DNA from: Nitrospirota bacterium
Lineage (GTDB): Bacteria; Nitrospirota; UBA9217
Direction of reading: 5' to 3'
Assembly: GCA_029858565.1 (NCBI GenBank)
Contig: JAOUEV010000001.1
Location: 107,420-171,419 of the forward strand
Length of the DNA: 64,000 nt
Part shown: piece after piece, positions 1 to 13,547 of the stretch
Numbering within the stretch: the first letter of the stretch is position 1
Layout of the letters: the number at the start of each line of letters is the position of its first letter
Program-made: the position numbers and the translations under genes
The notes under the pieces: model-generated
Seen by the model: the letters and a program-made list of their open reading frames with translations, nothing else
What the model was told of the DNA's origin: nothing
The model's database searches: none

Positions 1-6
1 GAATAT

Positions 7-690
7 GTGTATGGAGGAATGTGCACAAACTGGACGGTTTCAAATTTTGATGCTCACAATGTAGGTTTTATCTACTCTACCACCTACGGATGGACTGCCG
101 GCTCGGGAAACTGTAACTCGTCGGCGGCGCTGGCGTGTTTTCAGATCGGGAACGGCGGACCGCTCCCGGCCTTTACCGCCACGGGGAGAAAAGCCTTCAT
201 TACGTCGACCAAGGGGACCGGCAACCTCGGCAGTTGGGCCGACTCAGGCGGCAACACAGGTGTTGCTGCCGGCGATGCGATCTGCCAGGCGCGGGCTTCC
301 GCCGCCGGTCTTGCCAATGCGGCAAAATTCAAGGCGTGGTTGTCCGATGGAACCGCGGCGATGGATAGCCGGTTGACGGGCAATGGCCCCTGGCTCCGTC
401 TCGACGGCATGGTTATGGCCAAGGACAAGACAGAACTCATGAGCGGCAGTTTGCCGACCAGCATCAACGTAACCGAGACAGGGGTGTACGTCGGCGACGC
501 AAATTCCCTTGCCTGGACGGGCACGAAGTCAGACGGCACGGCGCACGCAGACACTTGTAACGGCTGGACCGATGCAACAAACGGGATGAGCGGATTGGCG
601 GGGATGCCTTATGCCGCGAACCTCTGGTGGACGTTCTTCACGCTGCCGACCTGCGACACGCAGGCGTCGCTCTATTGCCTGGAAGACTGA
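7..690 (+). CDS. C-terminal fragment (5' end outside window) of a secreted Cys-containing Gly/Thr/Ala-rich protein of unknown function
   Basis: ORF open to window edge; conserved Cys positions (CNGWTD, LPTCDT, LYC); no recognisable catalytic motif. Confidence 0.4.
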   Translation: MYGGMCTNWTVSNFDAHNVGFIYSTTYGWTAGSGNCNSSAALACFQIGNGGPLPAFTATGRKAFITSTKGTGNLGSWADSGGNTGVAAGDAICQARASAAGLANAAKFKAWLSDGTAAMDSRLTGNGPWLRLDGMVMAKDKTELMSGSLPTSINVTETGVYVGDANSLAWTGTKSDGTAHADTCNGWTDATNGMSGLAGMPYAANLWWTFFTLPTCDTQASLYCLED

Positions 691-725
691 GTTTTCGCAA
701 AAATCAAGAAGACACGTACTGCTTT

Positions 726-755
726 GCGGCCGCCCTTCGGGGCGGCCGTTTCTTT
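726..755 (+). terminator. Rho-independent terminator: GC hairpin CGGCCGCCC-TTCG-GGGCGGCCG followed by TTTCTTT
   Basis: perfect 9-bp GC stem, 4-nt loop and T-rich tail about 35 nt after the stop of ORF 7..690. Confidence 0.6.
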
Positions 756-810
756 GGAACGTGTATCGATGCTTCCCCCGTGGCAGGAATATGCTGCGGC
801 GAACAGAGCC

Positions 811-840
811 TTGACCCGCCTTTGCCCATGATGCTAGAAT
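811..840 (+). promoter_or_regulatory. sigma70-like promoter TTGACC-N18-TAGAAT
   Basis: near-consensus -35 and -10 hexamers about 55 nt upstream of ATG 896; the ATG at 839 lies inside the -10 box and is unlikely to be the start. Confidence 0.45.
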
Positions 841-895
841 GCACACTGTTCACCGGCATGGATATCCCGATCATGGCAGCGCATTCTTTCCGTTC

Positions 896-1729
896 ATGAC
901 CCAACTTACCGAAGAGACTTTTGAAAAGACCCTCCGTTCCTTTATCCGCTCAGAGCGTATAGACCTGGGCGGCGTCACGTTCATCGATCCCTACGGCATG
1001 GTCGGCCTTTTGGAGATCGGCGAGCTGTGCATGCTCGAGGACGTGAAGAAGACGATCGTCCTTCCCCGATCCCCCGAGGTCTGCAGGTATCTTGAGCGCA
1101 TGGACTTCTTTTCCCACGCGAAACGATACTTCACCCTTGAACCCATGCAGCCTCCATCTGATGGCAGCAGCGGCGCCTCAGATGTACTGCTCGAGATCAC
1201 ACCCATCGAACGGGCCAACGATATCCACTATATTGTCGGCAAGGTGCGGGAGCGGGCCCAGGCCATACTTACTGCACATCTCCGGTACGATGAACGGGCC
1301 ATCAACGGGTTCATCGTTGCCCTTTCCGAGGTCTGCCAGAACATCATCGAGCATAGCGAGAACAAGGGCTTTGTGGGAATCCAGAAGTACCGTTTTCCGA
1401 GCCTGGGAAAGAACATCGTCAAGATCGCGGTCATGGATGCGGGCATAGGATTTCGCAGGTCGCTCTCGAACCGCTTCAAGCTCAAGAGCGATCTTGAGGC
1501 TATAGAAAAGGGCCTGCTCCAAGGCGCGTCGCGCCACGAGGACGAGGGCCGTGGCCACGGCCTTGCCGCAGTGCGCAGGTTCGTGACCCAGTGGCAGGGC
1601 AGGCTCTCGATCCGCTCTGGCTCGGCCCGTCTCTCACTTATCCCGAAGTGGTCGCGGGGCAGGGAAAAGGAACTGAACCTCACGCAGTTCCCCGGCAGCC
1701 AGATCAACATCATCCTGCCGGAGATGTGA
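896..1729 (+). CDS. STAS-like N-terminal domain fused to GHKL/HATPase_c ATP-binding domain (RsbW/SpoIIAB-type anti-sigma kinase-like)
   Basis: N box QNIIEHSENKG, G1 box MDAGIGF, G2 box GHGLAAV; N-terminal IDLGGVTFIDPYGMVGLL resembles a STAS strand-helix; start taken at Met896 downstream of the promoter. Confidence 0.55.
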   Translation: MTQLTEETFEKTLRSFIRSERIDLGGVTFIDPYGMVGLLEIGELCMLEDVKKTIVLPRSPEVCRYLERMDFFSHAKRYFTLEPMQPPSDGSSGASDVLLEITPIERANDIHYIVGKVRERAQAILTAHLRYDERAINGFIVALSEVCQNIIEHSENKGFVGIQKYRFPSLGKNIVKIAVMDAGIGFRRSLSNRFKLKSDLEAIEKGLLQGASRHEDEGRGHGLAAVRRFVTQWQGRLSIRSGSARLSLIPKWSRGREKELNLTQFPGSQINIILPEM

Positions 1730-1854
1730 TCAGGCCCTATCCTGATCTCGAACACCGTTTTATTCCCGCGCTGATAACGCCTGTTTTATTGACAGCTCTC
1801 GATCAAGTTGGTACTATGTTGCAGTTTGTTGAAGCCGTTCTGAAGGAGAATGAA

Positions 1855-2253
1855 ATGAAGAAACAGATTGTGATGTTGTTCCTGGCAGCAGGTCTCATGA
1901 TCGCCCAGAGCGCATTGGCTGCTGAAACAGCGCCGCTCAGCACTCCGGAGCTGAAGCAGGCCATCGGCGCGGGCAAGAAGAACACGGTTGTTTTCTTTAT
2001 CAACCCCAACGGCGGTCCCTGCAAGGCGCAGAAGGAGATCCTGGTTCAGCTTCAGAAGGACCGGAAGGGGAACTTCAATATTGCCTACGTGGATGCAATG
2101 AACCAGGCGAACCAGAAGGCGTTCTATGACTACGGCGTCAGGAGCCTGCCCACGGTCGTGGTCGTTGACGGGAAGGGCAAGATCGCAAAGTATTTCCCTC
2201 CGGGCATCCAGAGCTACGATGTTCTGGCAAAGACGCTGGACAGCATTAAGTAA
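1855..2253 (+). CDS. periplasmic thioredoxin-like protein (TlpA/ResA-like) with signal peptide
   Basis: AAGGAG SD before ATG 1855; signal peptide MKKQIVMLFLAAGLMIAQSALA; thioredoxin-fold length; redox motif degenerate (GGPC); stop overlaps ccdA start by 1 nt. Confidence 0.65.
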   Translation: MKKQIVMLFLAAGLMIAQSALAAETAPLSTPELKQAIGAGKKNTVVFFINPNGGPCKAQKEILVQLQKDRKGNFNIAYVDAMNQANQKAFYDYGVRSLPTVVVVDGKGKIAKYFPPGIQSYDVLAKTLDSIK

Positions 2254-2897
2254 TGGACCTAGGCATAACAAATATCGGATTGGCAATAGGCGCGGGGCTC
2301 GCAAGCGTGATGTCTCCCTGCGTGCTGCCGGTCGTTCCGGTGATCATGGCGGGGGCGGAGCGGGAAGACCGCCTTCGGCCCCTGCTGATCGTTCTCGGGC
2401 TGTCGCTCATGTTCATGATCATGGGCGCGATCTCGTCGCTCTTTGGCGCGCTTCTGGTCGGAAAGACCCGGTACATCGAACTGACCGGCGCGGTGATCAT
2501 CATGATCATGGGCTTTGTGGTCCTGTTCGATCTCAGCCTGTTCAAGCGGCTCTATCAATTGTCGAACATTCGCGTGAAGGGCGAGGGAAGGTTCTCGGGG
2601 CTTCTGCTCGGCATGGCGCTCGGCCTTGTCTGGGTCCCCTGCATCGGTCCGTTCCTGTCCAGCATCCTCACCATGGTCGGCACGAGCGGAGAGATGGCAA
2701 AGGGTGTTTTCCTGCTCGGATTCTACTCTCTTGGCCTTGCGATCCCCATGCTGATCGTGGCTTATTCCTCACATCTTCTGCAGCGCAAGCTCAGTTCCCT
2801 GGCACGGCATGAAGCGGTATTTCGCTATGTGACCGGCAGCATCCTTATTGCTTTTGGTCTGTACTCCATCCTTGTCGGCAACATCGCCTTCTCGTAA
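2253..2897 (+). CDS. ccdA: cytochrome c-type biogenesis / thiol-disulfide electron transporter CcdA (DsbD beta-domain family)
   Basis: six predicted TM helices with the two conserved Cys motifs SPCVLP and VPCIGP; translationally coupled to the thioredoxin gene. Confidence 0.8.
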   Translation: MDLGITNIGLAIGAGLASVMSPCVLPVVPVIMAGAEREDRLRPLLIVLGLSLMFMIMGAISSLFGALLVGKTRYIELTGAVIIMIMGFVVLFDLSLFKRLYQLSNIRVKGEGRFSGLLLGMALGLVWVPCIGPFLSSILTMVGTSGEMAKGVFLLGFYSLGLAIPMLIVAYSSHLLQRKLSSLARHEAVFRYVTGSILIAFGLYSILVGNIAFS

Positions 2898-3004
2898 CTG
2901 ATTGATATTATAGGTTATAATATCAATTAAATAACCACTTGACAAAAGTCTTGAAATATGGTTCAATTGATTCAATTGAATTGGATGTTTTTAGCGGGAG
3001 CTCT

Positions 3005-3571
3005 ATGGAATTAACGATCAATACCGGAACTTTTGAGCACAAGATCTATCCCATTCGAGGACAGAAGGTCATGCTGGACAGCGACCTTGCTGCTATGTAT
3101 GGGGTGAATATCGGCGACCTGCATCGCGCGGTAAAAAGGAATATGACACGATTTCCCAAGGACTTCATGTTCCAGTTGACACCCGATGAGACCGAAACCT
3201 TAAGATGCCAAACCGGCATCATGGGACTGCGTGAGCATCTTACAGCCCAAAACGCCGGCATAACGCCTGCTCGTGGAAAACAGCGGAAGTATCTTCCCCA
3301 GGTCTTTACTGAACAGGGCGTGGCCATGCTTTCCAGCGTGTTAAAGAGCCGGCAGGCAGCTCACGTCAATACTGCAATCATGCGCACGTTCATCAGTGAT
3401 TCCCGGTTCGCGGTTGTTTTCGATGCCATTCGCGAGTTCATGACTCAGACGGACAAGATCGGTTTCCTTGCCAGGGAAAGCATGTCTGTCTATAAGACAG
3501 TTGCTGAGAGATCATTATTGGCAGCCTCAAAAGCGGATAGGAAAAAGATCCATCATGAGGTTGCACGATGA
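3005..3571 (+). CDS. ORF6N-domain (KilA-N-like, phage antirepressor-type) protein
   Basis: YPIRGQKVMLDSDLAAMYGV motif typical of ORF6N N-terminal domain; GGGAG SD before ATG 3005; local GC about 50%, below flanks. Confidence 0.55.
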   Translation: MELTINTGTFEHKIYPIRGQKVMLDSDLAAMYGVNIGDLHRAVKRNMTRFPKDFMFQLTPDETETLRCQTGIMGLREHLTAQNAGITPARGKQRKYLPQVFTEQGVAMLSSVLKSRQAAHVNTAIMRTFISDSRFAVVFDAIREFMTQTDKIGFLARESMSVYKTVAERSLLAASKADRKKIHHEVAR

Positions 3572-3951
3572 AGCCGGTGGCCACGGCAGAAACAATAGCG
3601 CGACAGATTTATCTGATCCGCGGACAGCACCGAAAGTATTTACCCTATGCATTTACCGAGCACGGGGCGCTCATGGCTGCGAGTGTTCTTAATACGCCGC
3701 GTGCCGTCGAGGTGAGCATTTATGTTGTGCGCGCATTCGTCAAGCTCCGGGAAATGATCGCTTCTCATAAGGATCTCGCAAATCGCTTTGATGATTTGGA
3801 GAAACGATACGATGCGCGGTTTACCGTGGTTTTCGACGCTATTCGCGAACTGATGACCGTTCCGGAGGAAGAAAAAAGAAAAATCGGGTTTCTGGCAAAG
3901 GAGAACCATGCGGTCTATGCGTCGCCTGACCGCAGTAATGCAGTGGCCTAA
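3568..3951 (+). CDS. N-truncated paralog of the upstream ORF6N-domain gene (C-terminal module only)
   Basis: aligns with the C-terminal 120 aa of ORF 3005..3571 (RKYLP, RFxVVFDAIREx, KIGFLAxE conserved); ATGA start/stop overlap. Confidence 0.5.
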   Translation: MKPVATAETIARQIYLIRGQHRKYLPYAFTEHGALMAASVLNTPRAVEVSIYVVRAFVKLREMIASHKDLANRFDDLEKRYDARFTVVFDAIRELMTVPEEEKRKIGFLAKENHAVYASPDRSNAVA

Positions 3952-3961
3952 TAATTTCGCT

Positions 3962-4525
3962 ATGACCACTTACGACCTTCATACACTCCTGAAAGAGGAG
4001 ATCAACAGCGACGCCCGGGACCTCGTGACCCGGCCCACCGGCCAGGCCATCCGCATACGGATCGAGCGGGACCTGGAAGCGGAGCCCGCGGGAACCGTGA
4101 TCGGTCTCGACTTCTCCAGGGTCGGAGTGATCGACTATTCCTGCGCGGACGAGATCGTGGCAAAGCTCCTGTCGCGGCTGCTTTCGGGCGAGTACGGGGA
4201 CCGGTATCTCCTGCTCCTGGGGCTGAACGAGAACCAGAAGGAGAACATCGAGGTGGCGCTGGAACGGAAGGACCTCGCCATCGCAGGCCAGATGAAGGAC
4301 AACGGAAGGGCGCTGCTCGGGAGCCTGAACAATTACCTCCGCGACACGCTCGATCATATCGTGAAGAACCGGAAGGTATCGTCAAAGGACCTGGCAGACG
4401 CCAAGAAGCTCGAGCCGAACACGAGCGGAACACGGCTGCTGAACCTCTACAAGAAGCGGCTGGTAAAACGGATCGAGGAACTGCGCAGCGACGGCAAGGT
4501 CTGGGTGTATGAAACGCTGGAGTAA
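3962..4525 (+). CDS. DUF4325-type STAS-like domain protein (putative anti-sigma antagonist-like partner)
   Basis: VIGLDFSRVGVIDYSCADEIVAKLL STAS-like core; start set at the first ATG after the upstream stop; no clear SD. Confidence 0.45.
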   Translation: MTTYDLHTLLKEEINSDARDLVTRPTGQAIRIRIERDLEAEPAGTVIGLDFSRVGVIDYSCADEIVAKLLSRLLSGEYGDRYLLLLGLNENQKENIEVALERKDLAIAGQMKDNGRALLGSLNNYLRDTLDHIVKNRKVSSKDLADAKKLEPNTSGTRLLNLYKKRLVKRIEELRSDGKVWVYETLE

Positions 4526-4582
4526 AACAGCGCGAAGAAGCAACGGTGTTCTTATCAACGCGATTGACCGGAGGGTTGGATC

Positions 4583-5041
4583 ATGGACAAGATCAACGAC
4601 AGAATAGTCCTTTTTATCGCGCAGGGCGCGTACAGCGGCAGGGTGCCGTTCGCACCGGGAACAGCGGGAACGGCGGCTGCTGTTCTGCTGTATCTGCTGC
4701 TTAAGGCGCTCAATCCCGGGGCCTATCTTGGCGTATGCGTGCTCGTGACGGTCCTCGGGACCTGGATGGCAGGCGAGGCAGAGCTGCTGCTCAGGAAGAA
4801 GGACAGCCCCTCCATCGTTATCGACGAGATCGCCGGTTTTTTAGTGGCCATGTTCCTGGTGCCGGCGAGCTGGGAGTACATCGTTGCGGCTTTCCTGCTC
4901 TTCCGGTTCTTCGATATCGTCAAACCCTGGCCGATCAACGGGCTTCAGAAGGTCTCCGGCGGCGCCGGGGTGATGCTCGACGACCTGGGAGCAGGGATCT
5001 TCACGAACATAGTTCTTCAGATCGCGGCACGAAACCTATGA
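4583..5041 (+). CDS. pgpA: phosphatidylglycerophosphatase A
   Basis: PgpA family length and motifs (GTAGTAAAV, DEIAGF, FRFFDIVKPWP); GGAGGG SD. Confidence 0.8.
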   Translation: MDKINDRIVLFIAQGAYSGRVPFAPGTAGTAAAVLLYLLLKALNPGAYLGVCVLVTVLGTWMAGEAELLLRKKDSPSIVIDEIAGFLVAMFLVPASWEYIVAAFLLFRFFDIVKPWPINGLQKVSGGAGVMLDDLGAGIFTNIVLQIAARNL

Positions 5042-5142
5042 AGGGAAAGGAGTAAAGGATTGCAGGATTAGGAGGATTACCCCCTGGCATTATCAGACGG
5101 TTAATCCTTACCTCTCTACTCCTCTGATCCTGATCTTAAATC

Positions 5143-6378
5143 ATGCGCGCTGAGATCATAGCAACCGGCAGTGAACTGTTGACCGGCAGGACCGTGGACA
5201 CCAACTCCCTGTTCCTTGCCGACGGGCTTCTGGACCTCGGCATCGAAACCGCTTTCAAGTCCGTGGTAGGGGACGATGAAAAGGACATGGAAGAGGTCTT
5301 CCGCCGCGCCCTTGACCGCGCGGAGGTGATCGTGATCACCGGCGGCCTGGGCCCCACGGAGGATGATATCACGCGCAAGGTGCTCGCGCGGATGTTGAAG
5401 AAACGGCTCGTGCTGAACGAGAAAGCGCTCAAGGCGATCAAGGACGTGTTCGCTGCCCGGAACAGGGAGTATCCGGCGTCGAACGACCGCCAGGCGCTCA
5501 TCCCGTCAGGCGGCCGGGTGCTGGCAAATCCCGTGGGCATCGCTCCGGGGTTCTTCCTGATCGAGGAAGGGCGGTTCATTGCCGTGCTTCCCGGAGTGCC
5601 GCAGGAGATGCGGACAATGTTCAGCGAGTCGCTCCGGCATGAGCTCGCGGCCCATTGCCGCAGCGAGGTCTTCATCCACCGCAAGGTGCTGCATACCTGG
5701 GGCATCGCCGAGTCAAAGGTCAACGAACAGCTTGAGGATATACTGAAAAAGGGCAAGCCCGTCATGGGACTGACCGCGCGGGAGACCGGCGTTGATATCA
5801 GCATCCTTGCGAAGGAAGGGAGCCGCGACCGCGCGCTCACCCTGGCGGACCGGACAGAGACCGAGGTCCGCAAACGGCTCGGCGACGCGGTGTACGGTAT
5901 GGACAGCCAGGCCATGGAAGAGGTCGTGGGCGCCCTGCTCAGGCACCGCAAGCTCACACTCAGCGCGGCCGAGTCCTGCACCGGCGGATTGATCAGCTCG
6001 AGGATCACGAACACTCCCGGAAGCTCCGACTATTTCGAACGAGCCGTGGTCACCTACAGCAACGCATCCAAGACCGAACTGCTGGGTGTTCCCGCGGAGC
6101 TGATCGCGGCCCATGGCGCGGTGAGCCGGGAGGTCGCGGCTGCCATGGCAACGGGCATCCGGGAACGCGCGAAAACAAGCCTCGGCATCGCGATCACCGG
6201 GATCGCGGGCCCGGGAGGCGGTACAGCGGAAAAGCCTGTGGGTCTTGTGTACCTGGCCCTCGCAACCGCCGAAGGCGTATCGGTCGAGGAGCGCAGGTTC
6301 CTGGGAGACCGCGACCAGATCCGGCAGCGTACCGCCCAGGCGGCGCTGGATATGGTGAGGAGGCATCTGATTGCGTGA
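5143..6378 (+). CDS. cinA: CinA family protein (MocF-like N-terminal domain plus C-terminal NMN deamidase PncC domain)
   Basis: MRAEIIATGSELLTGRTVDTN N-terminus and C-terminal CinA domain (ESCTGGL). Confidence 0.85.
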   Translation: MRAEIIATGSELLTGRTVDTNSLFLADGLLDLGIETAFKSVVGDDEKDMEEVFRRALDRAEVIVITGGLGPTEDDITRKVLARMLKKRLVLNEKALKAIKDVFAARNREYPASNDRQALIPSGGRVLANPVGIAPGFFLIEEGRFIAVLPGVPQEMRTMFSESLRHELAAHCRSEVFIHRKVLHTWGIAESKVNEQLEDILKKGKPVMGLTARETGVDISILAKEGSRDRALTLADRTETEVRKRLGDAVYGMDSQAMEEVVGALLRHRKLTLSAAESCTGGLISSRITNTPGSSDYFERAVVTYSNASKTELLGVPAELIAAHGAVSREVAAAMATGIRERAKTSLGIAITGIAGPGGGTAEKPVGLVYLALATAEGVSVEERRFLGDRDQIRQRTAQAALDMVRRHLIA

Positions 6379-6443
6379 TTGCGGATTGCGGATTGAAAAA
6401 ACCGCTGGCATAATCCGCAATCTGCAATCGGAAATCCGAAATC
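6371..6443. repeat. heptamer-repeat hairpin (TTGCGGA/ATCCGCA units) filling the cinA-thpR intergenic space
   Basis: left arm ttgcgtgattgcggattgcggattg, right arm taatccgcaatctgcaatcggaaatccgaaatc are reverse-complementary; same motif family as the tRNA-cluster spacers. Confidence 0.7.
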
Positions 6444-6446
6444 AAT

Positions 6447-7001
6447 ATGCGTTTATTCATTGCCATCGAGCTCCCCGAATCGCTCAAGCAGGAGATCGGG
6501 ACGGTCCGGGAACAGCTCAGGAAGAGCGGGGCAGATGCCAACTGGACCCGGCCTGAAGGCATCCACCTGACGCTCAAGTTCCTGGGCGAGGTGGAGGAGT
6601 CCCTCGTCCCGTTGATCAAAGGATCCCTTGCAGCGGCTTGTCGGGGTATCGGAAAGTTCCGGATCGAGATCGCGGGAGCGGGCGCCTTCCCGAACCTGAA
6701 GGCCCCCCGGGTGCTGTGGCTGGGCGTGCAGGGTGACGTGGAAAAGCTCGGAGCGCTGCAGGCATCGGTCGAGGACGGGATGGCGGATCTGGGATTCGAG
6801 CGGGAGGAACGGAAGTTCAGTCCTCATCTTACCCTTGGCCGCGTTAAGTTCCCCAGGCCACGGGACAACTGGCAGGACAGGATCAGCGAGATCAGGGACG
6901 TGCAGCTCGGCGGATTCGAGGCCGGTCACGTGAGCCTGATGAAGAGCGAGCTACGGCGCGACGGCGCGGTGTATACGGAAATGGCGAGGATAGAGATCTA
7001 G
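6447..7001 (+). CDS. thpR: RNA 2',3'-cyclic phosphodiesterase (2H phosphoesterase, LigT/ThpR)
   Basis: two H-x-T/S-x motifs (HLTLKF, HLTLGR), about 184 aa. Confidence 0.8.
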   Translation: MRLFIAIELPESLKQEIGTVREQLRKSGADANWTRPEGIHLTLKFLGEVEESLVPLIKGSLAAACRGIGKFRIEIAGAGAFPNLKAPRVLWLGVQGDVEKLGALQASVEDGMADLGFEREERKFSPHLTLGRVKFPRPRDNWQDRISEIRDVQLGGFEAGHVSLMKSELRRDGAVYTEMARIEI

Positions 7002-7036
7002 ACGAGAAACGAGAAACGAGAAACGAGAAACAGGAA
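7002..7036 (+). repeat. tandem heptamer repeat (ACGAGAA) x4 plus one degenerate unit, immediately after the thpR stop and 70 nt upstream of recA
   Basis: read directly from the sequence: acgagaa acgagaa acgagaa acgagaa acaggaa. Confidence 0.8.
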
Positions 7037-7108
7037 CTCACTCGTCGCTTGTCTCTGGTCACTTGTCACTGAGTAAATATCCCGGGACATCCGGAAAGGA
7101 GAACGAAC

Positions 7109-8203
<1,095 letters not shown>

Positions 8204-8272
8204 CGCCCGCCGCCGGATAATATTAGAAATTTCGCGCAAGTTAATGTACAATAGAACCACTTGCCGGTCGGT

Positions 8273-8310
8273 CCGGCCGCGTTCAGCGGTCAACGGCCGG
8301 CGCGATTTTT
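8273..8310 (+). terminator. putative Rho-independent terminator after recA (CCGGCCG stem, 19-nt loop, CGGCCGG then GATTTTTCT)
   Basis: 7-bp GC stem followed by T5 tract. Confidence 0.45.
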
Positions 8311-8361
8311 CTGCCCCGCCTGCTTGTCAGGCGTCGGTGCGTCTGGTTTGCGGGAGGTACC

Positions 8362-9579
8362 ATGCAACTGAATGATCTGCTCAAAGCGACGTTCGAAAAA
8401 AGAGCGTCGGACCTGCATCTGAAGGTCGGTGTTCCACCGGTCCTCAGGATCGACGGGAGGCTGGTGCCGCTTGATGCCGAGAAGCGGCTGACCCAGGAAG
8501 ACACGGTCGCGATCGCGTCGGGCATCATGAACCCGGGCCAGAAGGCCCGGTTCAACGAGAAGAACGAGCTGGACCTGGCCTACGCGGTCCCGGGGCTGGG
8601 ACGTTTCCGCGTGAACATATTCAAACAGCGCGGCAGCGTGGGCATGGTATTCCGGTCCGTGCCCGCGAAGATCCTGAACTTCGAGGAGCTGCTCCTGCCC
8701 CCGGTATTGACGAAGGTCGCCCAGGAGCAGCGCGGCCTGATACTCGTGACCGGGACCACGGGAAGCGGAAAATCCACGACGCTCGCGGCCGTGATCGATT
8801 ACATCAACACGGCGCGCACCACGAACATCGTGACCATCGAAGACCCCATCGAGTTCCTGCACCGGGACAAGAAGAGCATTGTGAACCAGCGCGAGATCGG
8901 TTCGGACACCTTCACCTTCGGAGAGGCGCTCCGGAGCGCCCTGCGCCAGGACCCCGATGTCATCCTCGTTGGCGAAATGCGCGACTTCGAGACCATTTCC
9001 ACAGCGCTGACCGCGGCCGAGACCGGCCACCTCGTGCTGTCCACCCTCCATACGGTGGACACTTCCGAGACCGTGAACCGCATCATCAACGCGTTCCCGC
9101 CCTTCCAGCAAAAACAGGTGCGCATGCAGCTGGCATCGGTCATCAAGGCCATCGTTTCCCAGCGGCTGGTCGCGCGCGCTGACGGCAAGGGCCGCGTGCC
9201 TGCCGTGGAAGTGATGCTCGGGACCATGTCGGTGCGCGAAGCGATCATCGACGAGACCAAGACCCGCACCATCCCCGGGATCATATCCTCGGGCATGGTC
9301 CATTACGGCATGCAGACCTTTGACCAGTCCCTTCTTGGCCACTACAAGAAAGGCATCATCACCTACGAGGAAGCGCTCACCATGGCAAGCAACCCCGACG
9401 ATTTCGCGCTCAAGGTCAAAGGCGTGCAGTCTACGAGCGACCTGGCCATGGAAGAGGATGAAAAAAAGAAGTCCGGATCAGGCATACGGGGCACCATCGG
9501 CGGAGCAAAGCCGGCGGCCAAGGAGTCCCCGGGCTCCTCAGGAAACTCGGATTTCAAGATCGACCGGTTCGGCAAGTAG
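8362..9579 (+). CDS. pilT: type IV pilus retraction ATPase PilT (with about 50-aa low-complexity C-terminal extension)
   Basis: Walker A GTTGSGKST, PilT family motifs, AIRNLIRE-like helix; GGGAGG SD; C-terminal tail KKKSGSGIRGTIGGAKPAAKESPGSSG is atypical. Confidence 0.9.
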   Translation: MQLNDLLKATFEKRASDLHLKVGVPPVLRIDGRLVPLDAEKRLTQEDTVAIASGIMNPGQKARFNEKNELDLAYAVPGLGRFRVNIFKQRGSVGMVFRSVPAKILNFEELLLPPVLTKVAQEQRGLILVTGTTGSGKSTTLAAVIDYINTARTTNIVTIEDPIEFLHRDKKSIVNQREIGSDTFTFGEALRSALRQDPDVILVGEMRDFETISTALTAAETGHLVLSTLHTVDTSETVNRIINAFPPFQQKQVRMQLASVIKAIVSQRLVARADGKGRVPAVEVMLGTMSVREAIIDETKTRTIPGIISSGMVHYGMQTFDQSLLGHYKKGIITYEEALTMASNPDDFALKVKGVQSTSDLAMEEDEKKKSGSGIRGTIGGAKPAAKESPGSSGNSDFKIDRFGK

Positions 9580-9618
9580 GCGTGAGACGTGAAACTAAAG
9601 AGGGATAATATCATTTCA

Positions 9619-9649
9619 GGGCGGTCCTCAGTGACCGCCCGTTCAATTT
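9619..9649 (+). terminator. hairpin GGGCGGTC-N-GACCGCCC followed by GTTCAATTT, downstream of pilT
   Basis: 8-bp GC stem; the following tract is only weakly U-rich. Confidence 0.4.
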
Positions 9650-9653
9650 GACC

Positions 9654-10142
9654 ATGGAGCAGGACGACAAGGAACTGAAACGGGCAAAGAACAGCGCCTA
9701 TCGTTTTCTCACCATCCGTCCCCGAAGCAGATACGAGGTCGAGCATAAGCTTCAGGACCGGGATTTCCCCTCGGACATCATCACTTCCGTCATTGATCAT
9801 CTTATCAGGCTTGGCTATCTTGACGATCGAAGGTTTGCGGCCCAATGGGCAGCGAGCCGTGTACGGACGCGCGGATTCGGCAGACGCAGGATCGAGCAGG
9901 AACTTTACACCAAGGGGATCAGCCGTGAACTTATCACCGATACCCTGAGGGAGCTCTTTTGCGACGAGCCGGAGCTTGATGTGGCGCGCAAGGAGGCGGA
10001 AAAGAAGCTTCGTTCCCTCGGACGGTTCGACCCGGAGGTCCGGAAGCGGCGGCTTGCCGGGCATCTGGAGCGGAAAGGATTCCCTGCGGAGATAATCGGG
10101 AAAGTCCTGAGGGAGACGGGCCGTGACCGACGCGAACCTTGA
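9654..10142 (+). CDS. recX: recombination regulator RecX
   Basis: three-repeat helical RecX architecture; ORF-track TTG start at 9648 replaced by in-frame ATG 9654. Confidence 0.8.
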   Translation: MEQDDKELKRAKNSAYRFLTIRPRSRYEVEHKLQDRDFPSDIITSVIDHLIRLGYLDDRRFAAQWAASRVRTRGFGRRRIEQELYTKGISRELITDTLRELFCDEPELDVARKEAEKKLRSLGRFDPEVRKRRLAGHLERKGFPAEIIGKVLRETGRDRREP

Positions 10143-10229
10143 CTAATCCGATGAGAAGGGGTATGATCATCCGTATTAAGTTACGGATAATCGGAGGATA
10201 TCGTGAAAGCAGCATTCAAAAGGGAAGAG

Positions 10230-10493
10230 ATGGTAAGTGCAACAACGGTTGCGAAGAACTTCGGCAAGGTCGTTGCGGACCTTTTGGAACACCGGAAGGA
10301 GAAGGCGGCCGTGGTCAGGAACAATGAGATCACAGCGGTCATTCTGCCTGTCGAGGATTACGAGTACATGGCGGATGTGGTCGAGTTCGTGGAGCATCTC
10401 GAGATCTACGATATGGTCACGAAGCGACGGAAAAGCGCCGGCAAGCGCGTTCCCTTGGACAAGCTGTTGAAGGAGGAAGGCGTTGCGCTATAA
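10230..10493 (+). CDS. type II antitoxin, Phd/YefM family
   Basis: about 87 aa; acidic C-terminus; GGGAAG SD before ATG 10230; overlaps the downstream toxin start. Confidence 0.6.
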   Translation: MVSATTVAKNFGKVVADLLEHRKEKAAVVRNNEITAVILPVEDYEYMADVVEFVEHLEIYDMVTKRRKSAGKRVPLDKLLKEEGVAL

Positions 10494-10791
10494 GGTCGTT
10501 CTTACCGCGGAAGCGGCGAACGATTTTCGCAGTCTTGACGGCTCGGTCAAGAAACAAGCCGCCCGACAGCTCAAAAAGCTCGAAGAATCACCTCACCTTG
10601 GCCAGCCGCTCGGAAATCGTGCAGGATTCGATCTGGCTGGTTACTATAAGCTGTACGCGGCAACTAAAGCCATCCGGATCATCTATCGTATTATTGAGGA
10701 TGAAGTCGTTGTGGAGATTCTAGGCATCGGCAAGCGGGCTGATTTCGAGGTCTATGCGGATGTGGCGAGAAGGTTGTTGAAGAAGAAGTAG
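10483..10791 (+). CDS. type II toxin, RelE/ParE superfamily (TTG start)
   Basis: 102 aa, basic, conserved RelE/ParE core (YKLYAATKAIRIIYRI, EILGIGKR); AGGAGG SD 7 nt before TTG 10483; 11-nt overlap with antitoxin. Confidence 0.7.
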   Translation: MRYKVVLTAEAANDFRSLDGSVKKQAARQLKKLEESPHLGQPLGNRAGFDLAGYYKLYAATKAIRIIYRIIEDEVVVEILGIGKRADFEVYADVARRLLKKK

Positions 10792-10907
10792 GTGAACCTG
10801 TTGTCAGGGATACCGGCTGTCCCGCACTAATCTGTTGAATTCTTCCCGTTTTTCTGCTATTTTCCCCAGTGCTGTTACTTTCTTAAATTTTCGCCAAGAG
10901 GTGTGTT

Positions 10908-13547
<2,640 letters not shown>

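Follow-up and report, generated by a model that had tools for sequence, protein, structure and literature searches.

Two ORF6N genes occupy a cargo slot within a probable CapK-CapS-type regulatory locus of Nitrospirota

Positions 2898–4525 of a 64,000-nucleotide stretch of a Nitrospirota contig (the whole stretch being referred to here as the window) contain an AT-rich spacer, two ORF6N-domain genes (ORF6N-1 and ORF6N-2) and a gene for a STAS-domain protein (gene 3), a segment that the original prediction, made from the letters alone, had described as a horizontally acquired islet. We find that this segment is, with a probability of about 0.7, the interior of a regulatory locus of the CapK-CapS ("controller of adjacent pathways") type and not a self-contained islet. 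Only 3005–3951, the ORF6N pair, is foreign cargo, distinct in composition and variable in position among relatives; the spacer and gene 3 are the resident putative operator and repressor.

In the characterised systems, CapK is a kinase with helix-turn-helix (HTH), STAS and GHKL domains, and CapS is a repressor with a STAS domain and a winged HTH, whose dimer binds palindromes in two promoters, its own (in the capK-capS interval) and that of an immune operon lying downstream (Chambers et al., EMBO J 2026, PMC13373217; CapS structures 9Z71, 9Z72 and 9Z73). Single-stranded DNA (ssDNA) activates CapK, CapS is phosphorylated at Ser54, the dimer dissociates and the promoters are derepressed; deletion of the CapK HTH leaves the damage response unaffected (PMC13373217). 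The corresponding features of the window, with all genes co-oriented and gene 3 followed by pgpA, cinA, ligT and recA, are the following.

896–1729 (alternative start 839), + strand: GHKL ATPase gene for a predicted CapK-like serine kinase (Pfam, hhalign)
1816/1855–2253, + strand: thioredoxin-like gene (Pfam)
2253–2897, + strand: ccdA/DsbD_TM gene (Pfam)
2899–2929, strand not applicable: AT-rich hairpin (sequence and fold)
2939–2944, + strand: −35 hexamer TTGACA (clade conservation)
2959–2967, + strand: extended −10 element, TGG-TTCAAT (clade conservation)
2962–2980, strand not applicable: 19-bp perfect palindrome, putative CapS operator (clade conservation)
3005–3571, + strand: ORF6N-1 (gene 1), 188 aa (Pfam, PADLOC, PHROG)
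3204–3220, + strand: remnant of hairpin hp1 within ORF6N-1, 6-bp stem GATGCC...GGCATC
3568–3951, + strand: ORF6N-2 (gene 2), 127 aa (alignment to relatives)
3962–4525, + strand: gene 3, CapS-like repressor gene, 187 aa, N-terminal STAS domain and C-terminal winged helix
4554–4568, strand not applicable: degenerate inverted repeat ATCAA-CGCGA-TTGAC (comparison with relatives)

Gene 3 is resident at this position and was not imported, because its synteny, its host-like GC content at third codon positions (GC3), its low ratio of nonsynonymous to synonymous substitution rates (dN/dS) and the fixed spacing of its promoter all agree. Using CinA as an anchor, we obtained 47 genome loci, onto which all window proteins were mapped, and an alignment of gene 3 yielded 80 further metagenome loci (individual loci are given below by L numbers). 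Gene 3 lies directly upstream of (pgpA-)cinA-ligT-recA in 24 of the 24 related Nitrospirota loci that reach upstream of cinA, at 59–67% identity for CinA and 63–77% for gene 3 itself, and it is 81–88% identical in the closer metagenomic relatives L050, L051 and L054. The database holds 4432 homologues of gene 3, the best 120 of them at 72–100% identity and including a Nitrospirota protein from a metagenome-assembled genome that is 100% identical; an exact look-up of gene 3 returned no entry. The drop in GC that had been taken to mark the islet is real (0.41–0.53 across 2850–4050, with 29% in the 107-nt spacer between ccdA and ORF6N-1), but the codon-position anomaly is confined to the ORF6N genes and ends at 3951: GC3 is 0.57 in ORF6N-1 and 0.56 in ORF6N-2, compared with 0.835 in gene 3 and 0.74–0.87 in the flanking genes. 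Gene 3 therefore has the host-like codon composition and conserved position that the original prediction had itself named as evidence against import. Its dN/dS is 0.07–0.11, and that of the kinase gene is 0.05. As for the proposed coupling of all three genes, genes 1 and 2 do overlap (ATGA, 3568–3571), but gene 3 starts after a 10-nt gap.

Gene 3 encodes a STAS domain followed by a winged HTH and is homologous to characterised CapS. Its earlier description as a DUF4325 STAS-like protein holds for the fold, residues 1–120 being structurally similar to solved STAS domains, but not for the Pfam family, to which it scores 17.2 bits (PF14213, gathering threshold 23); some close homologues have a precomputed PF14213 match or the NCBI name DUF4325, and an NCBIfam search of the three segment genes gave no meaningful matches. 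An AlphaFold2 model built from 55 diverse homologues reached a confidence (pLDDT) of 97.7, and the gene 3 family profile matched the Protein Data Bank (PDB) entries 9Z71 (E = 7.5e-20) and 9Z72 (E = 1.8e-18) along almost the entire length; these are E. roggenkampii and V. cholerae CapS according to the data statement of the paper (PMC13373217). The numbering of the CapS PDB chains is native plus 2, judging from the residues N145, K151, G169 and G170 given in the paper, and with this offset Ser60 of gene 3 (IDYSCADE) is in register with S54 of E. roggenkampii CapS (second S of TDSSF) and S58 of V. cholerae CapS (TDASF). This position, two residues past a conserved Asp, is a serine in most members of the gene 3 family, making Ser60 the candidate phospho-acceptor.

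The spacer upstream of ORF6N-1, originally assigned to the imported islet, is the clade-conserved promoter and putative operator of gene 3. The hexamer TTGACA and the repeat sequence TTCAATTGATTCAATTGAA (2962–2980) noted earlier are both present, but the repeat is a 19-bp perfect palindrome, TTCAATTGA-T-TCAATTGAA, and not a direct repeat; its form across the clade is TTCAATTGA-W-TCAATTGAA. TTGACA precedes the palindrome in 52 of 52 distinct clade loci, 41 of them have a 17-nt spacer between TTGACA and TTCAAT, the −10 hexamer with which the palindrome begins, and TGN stands directly 5' of the palindrome in 45. These elements predict a strong sigma-70-type promoter with a perfect −35 hexamer, a 17-nt spacer and an extended −10. 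A simple consensus promoter scanner did not call it, because the −10 hexamer has no A at position 2, and the promoter assignment therefore rests on conservation.

The palindrome occurs once per locus in 20 of 20 relatives that span the interval from the GHKL gene to gene 3, as well as in further metagenome loci, and always lies just 3' of the GHKL gene or, in the subclade of the window, of ccdA. Where nothing separates it from gene 3, the start codon of gene 3 follows 2–91 nt past the palindrome, which identifies the element as the gene 3 promoter with an operator over the −10 and start site. Distant gene 3 homologues (43–53% identity) retain TTCAA-N9-TTGAA with different inner bases, just past the −10 element and just before the start codon (in one case on a 1.3-kb contig), indicating that the operator travels with gene 3. 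From this conservation and by analogy with CapS, we consider the palindrome a putative CapS operator. No second TTCAA-N9-TTGAA site was found in the 64-kb window, even with one mismatch, nor upstream of recA, and for want of any similar site there or in the rest of the window we rejected an SOS box shared with recA.

Two further repeats flank this region. Immediately past the ccdA stop codon, the hairpin at 2899–2929 has a 14-bp stem, TGATTGATATTATA-GGT-TATAATATCAATTA, of which L054 has only a degenerate trace; it is possibly a terminator or a repeat element. Its outer arms (TTGATATT..AATATCAA) resemble a variant hairpin found within the ORF6N gene of L006. On the other side, many relatives have a conserved promoter, TTGAC-N17/18-TACAAT, within the first 60 nt past the gene 3 stop codon and before cinA or pgpA (L007, 3020–3065; also L011, L013, L014, L016, L022, L012 and L024). 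Its −35 is overlapped by an inverted repeat, (G)TCAA-N6-TTGAC, with the same half-sites as the main operator, and this repeat could be a second CapS site controlling cinA-ligT-recA in those relatives. The copy in the window (4554–4568), which is not accompanied by a −10 element and is followed 14 nt later by the pgpA start, is therefore probably a relic.

A GHKL partner for the STAS protein, which the original prediction had led us to expect, is encoded 2.2 kb upstream of gene 3, with the thioredoxin-like gene, ccdA and the two ORF6N genes between them. Its product (277 aa, or 296 aa from the start at 839, compared with 362 residues in CapK) scores 35.2 bits against Pfam HATPase_c (cut-off 26.4) and 30.9 against HATPase_c_2 (cut-off 27.4). 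Aligned with hhalign, the clade GHKL profile matched E. roggenkampii CapK at a probability of 94.3% (E = 1e-7), profile columns 69–240 (window residue 54 onward) against CapK 124–304. The aligned span runs from the end of the STAS region (YLERMDFFSH versus YLNRLGFFDH, in the C-terminal part of the central STAS region) through the N-box, where Asn149 aligns with CapK N218, and the alignment offset of 70 residues indicates that the kinase is without the N-terminal HTH of canonical CapK. When the N-terminus of the kinase was compared with the STAS domain of gene 3, the profile probability was 3%, and a PDB sequence search with the kinase found nothing. We therefore predict that 896–1729 encodes a CapK-like GHKL kinase without an HTH. 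The kinase and capS genes are separated in the window; they are adjacent in the clade loci that have nothing between operator and gene 3 and retain the kinase gene, as well as in distant loci. The CapK-like gene of L014 (4285–5139; 48% identity) has three in-frame stops, L014 being the genome locus with the largest insert (4.1 kb), and that of L081 (2180–3046) has one.

In this Nitrospirota clade, the stretch from the operator to the start of capS is a swap-in cargo slot. Across the clade, gene 3 lies between 2 and 4112 nt past the palindrome. Both ends are visible in 52 clade loci, of which 19 have an empty slot, about 13 contain only ORF6N and about 20 contain other cargo, fractions that are only indicative; in a further 33, foreign low-GC genes run up to the start of gene 3; and among distant homologues the slot is empty in 11 of 12. 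The GHKL gene is immediately upstream of gene 3 in many loci (L007, L008, L010, L011, L012, L018, L020 and L024), one full-length ORF6N gene lies between the two in L003, L004, L005, L006, L009 and L041, and other inserts of 0.3–4.1 kb are found in L014, L016, L022 and L047. In L019, an IS30-like transposase gene (7688–8680, − strand) splits the ORF6N gene, 44 nt upstream of a hairpin within it. The order in L050, L051 and L054 is thioredoxin-ccdA, one ORF6N gene and gene 3. This thioredoxin-ccdA pair is present only in the window and these three loci and is missing from 20 other genomes that keep the GHKL gene, the operator and gene 3; it is an insertion specific to this subclade, separating the kinase gene from the capS promoter. 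The ancestral left neighbour is not ccdA: in most relatives the promoter follows directly on the GHKL gene. The pair lies at 1816–2897 in the window, 6217–7263 in L050, 1482–2563 in L054 and 6151–7199 in L051, and L051–L053 have lost the kinase gene as a neighbour and instead carry a ParE/Phd pair and a DinG-like helicase gene upstream.

Cargo open reading frames (ORFs) are almost all co-oriented with gene 3 (+ strand), and many match defence families. They comprise type II methyltransferases (MTase_II; PADLOC, 738.9 bits; 17 loci), paired in 12 loci with an MjaI-family endonuclease (RE_MjaI; Pfam, 210.3 bits); EcoO109I-family endonucleases (RE_EcoO109I; Pfam, 308 bits; three loci); an Rv0078B-type antitoxin with an AbiEii-like nucleotidyltransferase (Pfam, 38.9 and 22.4 bits; five loci), the latter a marginal assignment, at 22.4 against a cut-off of 22.5 and with no PADLOC match; a GIY-YIG protein matching PDC-S14 (PADLOC, 50.9 bits; three loci); and an Eco57I-like methyltransferase (PADLOC, 420.4 bits; two loci). 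IS30 and RAYT genes are sporadic, being found in three loci only; IS200-like (RAYT-type) Y1 transposase genes lie in the cargo of L014 (5387–5761) and L047 (6365–6928). L014 also has an ORF6N remnant (LVFQFGMSK and hairpin) right after the operator, and a conserved small ORF of about 60 aa (MAITAKIEGTKLIITADLETPTPSASGKTLVVASTRGNKETDVVIDGKPVIIGLNAYIKK) is directly upstream of capS in L014 (9095–9274), L016 (9094–9273) and L047 (9096–9275), three genomes whose cargo is otherwise different.

No integrase, as first noted, and no transposase lies within 9 kb in the window, and at the slot we saw neither an integrase nor recurrent boundary (att-like) repeats, the recurrent hairpins lying inside ORF6N genes. 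Cargo exchange by homologous recombination in the conserved flanks is therefore the simplest inference and probably the mechanism. An integron-like platform was rejected as the mechanism, all ORFs in 1–9000 being assigned elsewhere, with no IntI and no attC at cassette boundaries. Insertion mediated by repetitive extragenic palindromic (REP) elements and RAYT was likewise rejected: the window has no REP-like hairpins, and the supposed REPs turned out to be inside ORF6N genes.

As read from their sequences, ORF6N-1 and ORF6N-2 are a stack of two eroded alleles, of which ORF6N-1 is a vertically inherited allele of what we call type A. ORF6N-1 matches the Pfam ORF6N model (PF10543) at 107.1 bits (gathering threshold 27.8) over positions 2–86 of 86, three PADLOC PDC-S05 models at 148.7, 140.2 and 97.8 bits and a PHROG anti-repressor at 83.8 bits; it has a ribosome-binding site, GGGAG, at 2996–3000, and a PDB sequence search with it found nothing. 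It shares with L003, L041, L050, L054 and L055 a common insertion (LRCQTGI..L..) and the motif FTEQGVAMLSSVL. While its N-terminal domain is kept, its coiled coil is about 22 residues short, lacking the part that ORF6N-2 retains, and L054 and L055 carry the same 22-residue deletion in their sole ORF6N copy. Between ORF6N-1 and L054, the synonymous rate (dS) is 0.81, matching that of the flanking genes (0.62–0.78), and dN/dS is 0.27 (flanks, 0.05–0.17), which argues for vertical co-inheritance under relaxed constraint and no recent import.

ORF6N-2 reaches only 23.5 bits against Pfam ORF6N, under the threshold and over model positions 63–86 alone, and 68.8 and 64.1 bits against PDC-S05. The original prediction had it as an N-truncated duplicate of the C-terminus of gene 1. 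The truncation is in fact an internal, in-frame deletion, as the first 20 residues match the full-length N-terminus (15 of 20 identical to L009) and are similar to the beginning of ORF6N-1, the whole C-terminal half is retained and the sequence jumps from RGQ to HRKYLP. The deletion, between two RGQ-coding repeats that are both present in alleles such as L005 (GRGQHRKY), takes out the DNA-binding ORF6N core and the hairpin site, as expected of a microhomology-type event. The two genes are paralogous as claimed (40% identity over 102 columns, E = 1e-21, with a 26-residue gap in ORF6N-1), but ORF6N-2 belongs to a different allele type: its helix segment (type B) groups with L005 and L009 (FTEHGALMAASVLNTPRA), and ORF6N-2 as a whole shares 71% identity with the only ORF6N gene of L009. 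Its C-terminal part resembles L006, L019 and L050, which makes it a mosaic gene. At the DNA level, ORF6N-2 is collinear with L050 from 3725 onward and with the 3' end of the L054 gene from 3807 onward, and the single ORF6N gene of L054 aligns twice to the window over its 3' part, so that the window has about 330 extra bases (3478–3806) relative to L054. Recent tandem duplication was rejected, since the two genes are only 40–47% identical (47% in the comparison with relatives' genes) and the single genes that each resembles more closely come from different relatives. The pair was found only in this genome (two identical contigs from different samples), and no dN/dS could be obtained for ORF6N-2, whose synonymous sites are saturated in the comparison with every relative at hand. 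Most likely, both copies are cargo that is eroding, their function reduced or absent.

ORF6N genes widely appear to carry a covarying intragenic hairpin, kept by compensatory changes that alter amino acids. In the clade, a perfect hairpin, TTTAAGGTCACA-AAT-TGTGACCTTAAA, lies at the codons for LRSQIVTLK, and type-A alleles have a second hairpin 30 nt upstream of the first (sites at 1577–1630 in L003, 7255–7283 in L004, 8314–8342 in L005, 6966–6994 in L006, 1065–1093 in L009 and 8330–8396 in L041); hairpins were also found in the viral loci L228, L230, L237, L238, L246, L248, L254, L258, L262, L271, L294 and L299. Pairing is kept despite the protein changes V to A in L005 and Q to P with I to M in L041, and L006 has a completely different stem, coding for LIFQFGISK. 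Across 17 hairpins picked by eye, and hence a biased set, 95.6% of cells pair, compared with 80.8% in shuffles (0 of 500 shuffles reaching the observed values), and 8 of 12 pairs show two-sided changes. In an unbiased sample of 35 unique ORF6N proteins encoded on viral contigs, with flanking protein motifs as the sole selection criterion, a perfect 11–13-bp stem with a 3-nt loop is at the same place in 14, one of them read in a different frame; the synonymous-codon nulls average 5 bp (P ≤ 0.01 each). ORF6N-1 retains a 6-bp-stem remnant (hp1) where relatives have a 12-bp stem, and the site is deleted in ORF6N-2, which fits erosion of both copies. No Rfam family matches the hairpin, or anything else in window positions 1–12000. 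The 19-nt stem sequence AGGTCRCAAATTGYGACCT has 91 copies in viral contigs (L137–L227; for example L137 8330–8348, L150 10721–10739 and L165 1846–1864), of which about 50 are intergenic, with A/T runs alongside like bidirectional terminators, and only 15 are in ORF6N genes. If confirmed, the hairpin would add a new feature to a gene family that is very widespread in phages and mobile elements.

By analogy with CapK-CapS, a dimer of the gene 3 product would bind the palindrome and repress its own promoter; ssDNA would activate the kinase, which would phosphorylate Ser60; and the phosphorylated dimer would fall apart, so that the promoter would fire upon DNA damage. Judging from position, the cargo, including ORF6N-1 and ORF6N-2, would be co-transcribed with capS from the CapS-controlled promoter, and no + strand terminator was predicted between 2980 and 4525. 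A joint reading goes further on two counts: the capS promoter would have been co-opted as a DNA-damage-inducible platform for defence cassettes (restriction-modification, Abi-type toxin-antitoxin, GIY-YIG and ORF6N genes) that sit between the kinase and repressor genes and are swapped by recombination in those genes, and ORF6N genes generally would carry a functional intragenic nucleic-acid element, a 12–13-bp stem with a 3-nt loop at the LRSQxVTS codons that could be a regulatory, self-recognition or recombination site. We put forward this combination tentatively, as possible rather than probable.

Several points weigh against a CapK-CapS-type locus with eroding cargo. Every regulatory step is carried over from the CapKS systems of Vibrio and enterobacteria. 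In the published survey, capS came straight after capK in 443 of 443 cases and immune operons lay downstream (PMC13373217), whereas the kinase here is without an HTH and is parted from capS by thioredoxin-ccdA as well as by cargo; the operator half-site is TCAA/TTGA where characterised CapS has TTAA. In the 33 loci where the palindrome is beyond the fetched sequence, cargo was assigned by position next to gene 3 only, and the loci came from pattern-based retrieval and are a non-random sample. Finally, both ORF6N frames are intact, their deletions are in frame, the genes are coupled and dN/dS of ORF6N-1 is 0.27, so retained ORF6N function is possible.

An alternative is that the switch has a functional third component in ORF6N, for instance as an antirepressor or co-regulator that targets CapS or the operator, here split in two, with ORF6N-1 giving the DNA-binding domain and ORF6N-2 the coiled coil, associated via a shared C-terminal motif. 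ORF6N is the commonest single occupant of the slot (about 13–15 loci), phage ORF6N relatives are annotated as anti-repressors, and the gene is coupled to capS in relatives (4-nt overlap in L051, 1–7-nt gaps in L050 and L054); in the window, the two deletions are complementary as well as in frame, the genes share the ATGA overlap and dN/dS is below 1. Set against this, the kinase gene, operator and capS are intact without ORF6N in 19 clade loci and 11 of 12 distant loci, unrelated restriction-modification and toxin-antitoxin cargo abuts capS equally tightly, and L054 and L055 carry the coiled-coil-deleted allele alone, so that no second gene is needed to complement it. ORF6N is also foreign in composition and split by an IS30-like element in one relative. 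We consider a third component unlikely, and the context argues for a defence-related or selfish role of ORF6N.

Two other explanations fare worse. The palindrome might be bound by another regulator, such as a clade-specific SOS-type or global repressor, with the slot a neutral intergenic insertion hotspot; the locus does adjoin cinA-ligT-recA, the half-sites are unlike those published for CapS and binding by gene 3 is only predicted, but the site is single in the 64-kb window, with none upstream of recA, it accompanies gene 3 homologues, including distant ones in other contexts, and CapS, a homologue, binds precisely this kind of site in the promoter of its own gene, so we regard this as very unlikely. 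Most improbable is the islet as first conceived, in which ORF6N, truncated ORF6N and DUF4325 genes were acquired as one with their own AT-rich promoter and dropped between ccdA and pgpA. The low GC through 2850–4050, the tight gene packing and the links of ORF6N to phages and mobile elements (a PHROG anti-repressor and a PADLOC defence candidate) speak for it; however, gene 3 has a GC3 of 0.835 and is held at its position across the clade with or without ORF6N, the promoter and palindrome are also present in genomes with an empty slot, dS of ORF6N-1 is the same as that of the flanks and the closest relatives carry one ORF6N gene, not two.

Elsewhere in the window, we observed a 7-bp unit, CGAGAAA, repeated four times in tandem (7003–7031) in the ligT-recA interval, about 80 nt upstream of the recA start. 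The recX-alaS interval (about 10203–10791, coordinates transferred from L001) contains two small overlapping genes of 96 and 102 aa, the second with a weak ParE_toxin match. GC dips to 0.47 there, and the pair is probably an inserted toxin-antitoxin system.

The interpretation of the segment as part of a CapK-CapS-type locus would extend a system described in 2026 in proteobacteria, upstream of immune operons, to Nitrospirota, a lineage that appears in the vapKSC table of the published survey only and not in its capKS table (PMC13373217). Should the capS promoter control transcription of the cargo, DNA damage would, in these uncultured bacteria, turn on restriction-modification and abortive-infection genes. 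New defence genes could also be harvested from metagenomes with the conserved operator and the capS gene as a simple handle, and the interchangeability of ORF6N with restriction-modification and toxin-antitoxin genes in the slot gives independent contextual support to the still-unproven defence link of the ORF6N family.

Among known systems, CapK-CapS is the closest: a GHKL kinase gene is followed by a gene for a STAS-winged-helix repressor, both proteins are homologous, the serine is in the same register, a palindrome lies over the promoter between both genes and the locus is linked to restriction-modification and other defence genes. It differs in that the kinase here is without the N-terminal HTH and that one 19-bp TCAA/TTGA palindrome takes the place of the narrow and wide TTAA forms of CapS. 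Variable cargo here lies behind the capS promoter, between the kinase gene and capS, whereas the published cargo is downstream of capS; the place of an immune operon controlled via a second site is taken in the window, as in the CinA-anchored relatives, by pgpA-cinA-ligT-recA, and other clade loci differ downstream. VapK-VapS-VapC (PMC13373217) likewise has a kinase without an HTH (kinase profile probability 86%; VapS, E = 0.018), but there is no VapC/PIN gene here, the STAS protein has a winged helix instead of a short inhibitory tail, and the similarity to VapK is weaker and covers the kinase domain only, whereas that to CapK reaches the STAS-linker region. SpoIIAB-SpoIIAA and RsbW-RsbV share the pairing of an anti-sigma-type GHKL kinase (HATPase_c_2) with a STAS substrate; in our locus the STAS protein also contains a DNA-binding domain, neither a sigma-factor gene nor a PP2C phosphatase gene adjoins and the output would be direct repression, not sigma-factor release.

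For the cargo, the parallels lie with other systems. ORF6N-1 is a clear member of the ORF6N/KilA-N/Bro-N-type DNA-binding proteins of PDC-S05, with deletions in both window copies; in a preprint, one PDC-S05 representative protects E. coli against T7, T5 and T4, but it is described with a RhuM domain, so its relevance to the ORF6N subfamily here is indirect. Like the core-genome defence hotspots of Pseudomonas aeruginosa (cDHS, PMC10250203), the slot has conserved flanks, variable, low-GC, defence-rich cargo and no dedicated integrase or other recombinase, and like the regulator-linked defence loci CapW/BrxR and CapH+CapP it would place a DNA-damage-responsive repressor beside cargo. Unlike in either group, the flanks here are the two halves of a regulator pair, with the cargo behind its autoregulated promoter. 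An integron cassette platform resembles it in that a fixed promoter precedes cargo genes that are co-oriented, mostly promoterless and variable in number, but differs in its IntI integrase and its attI/attC sites, neither of which we saw here. While the CapK-CapS type of system is known, what is new here is a kinase without an HTH, a different operator, the occurrence in Nitrospirota and a cargo slot that separates the two regulator genes.

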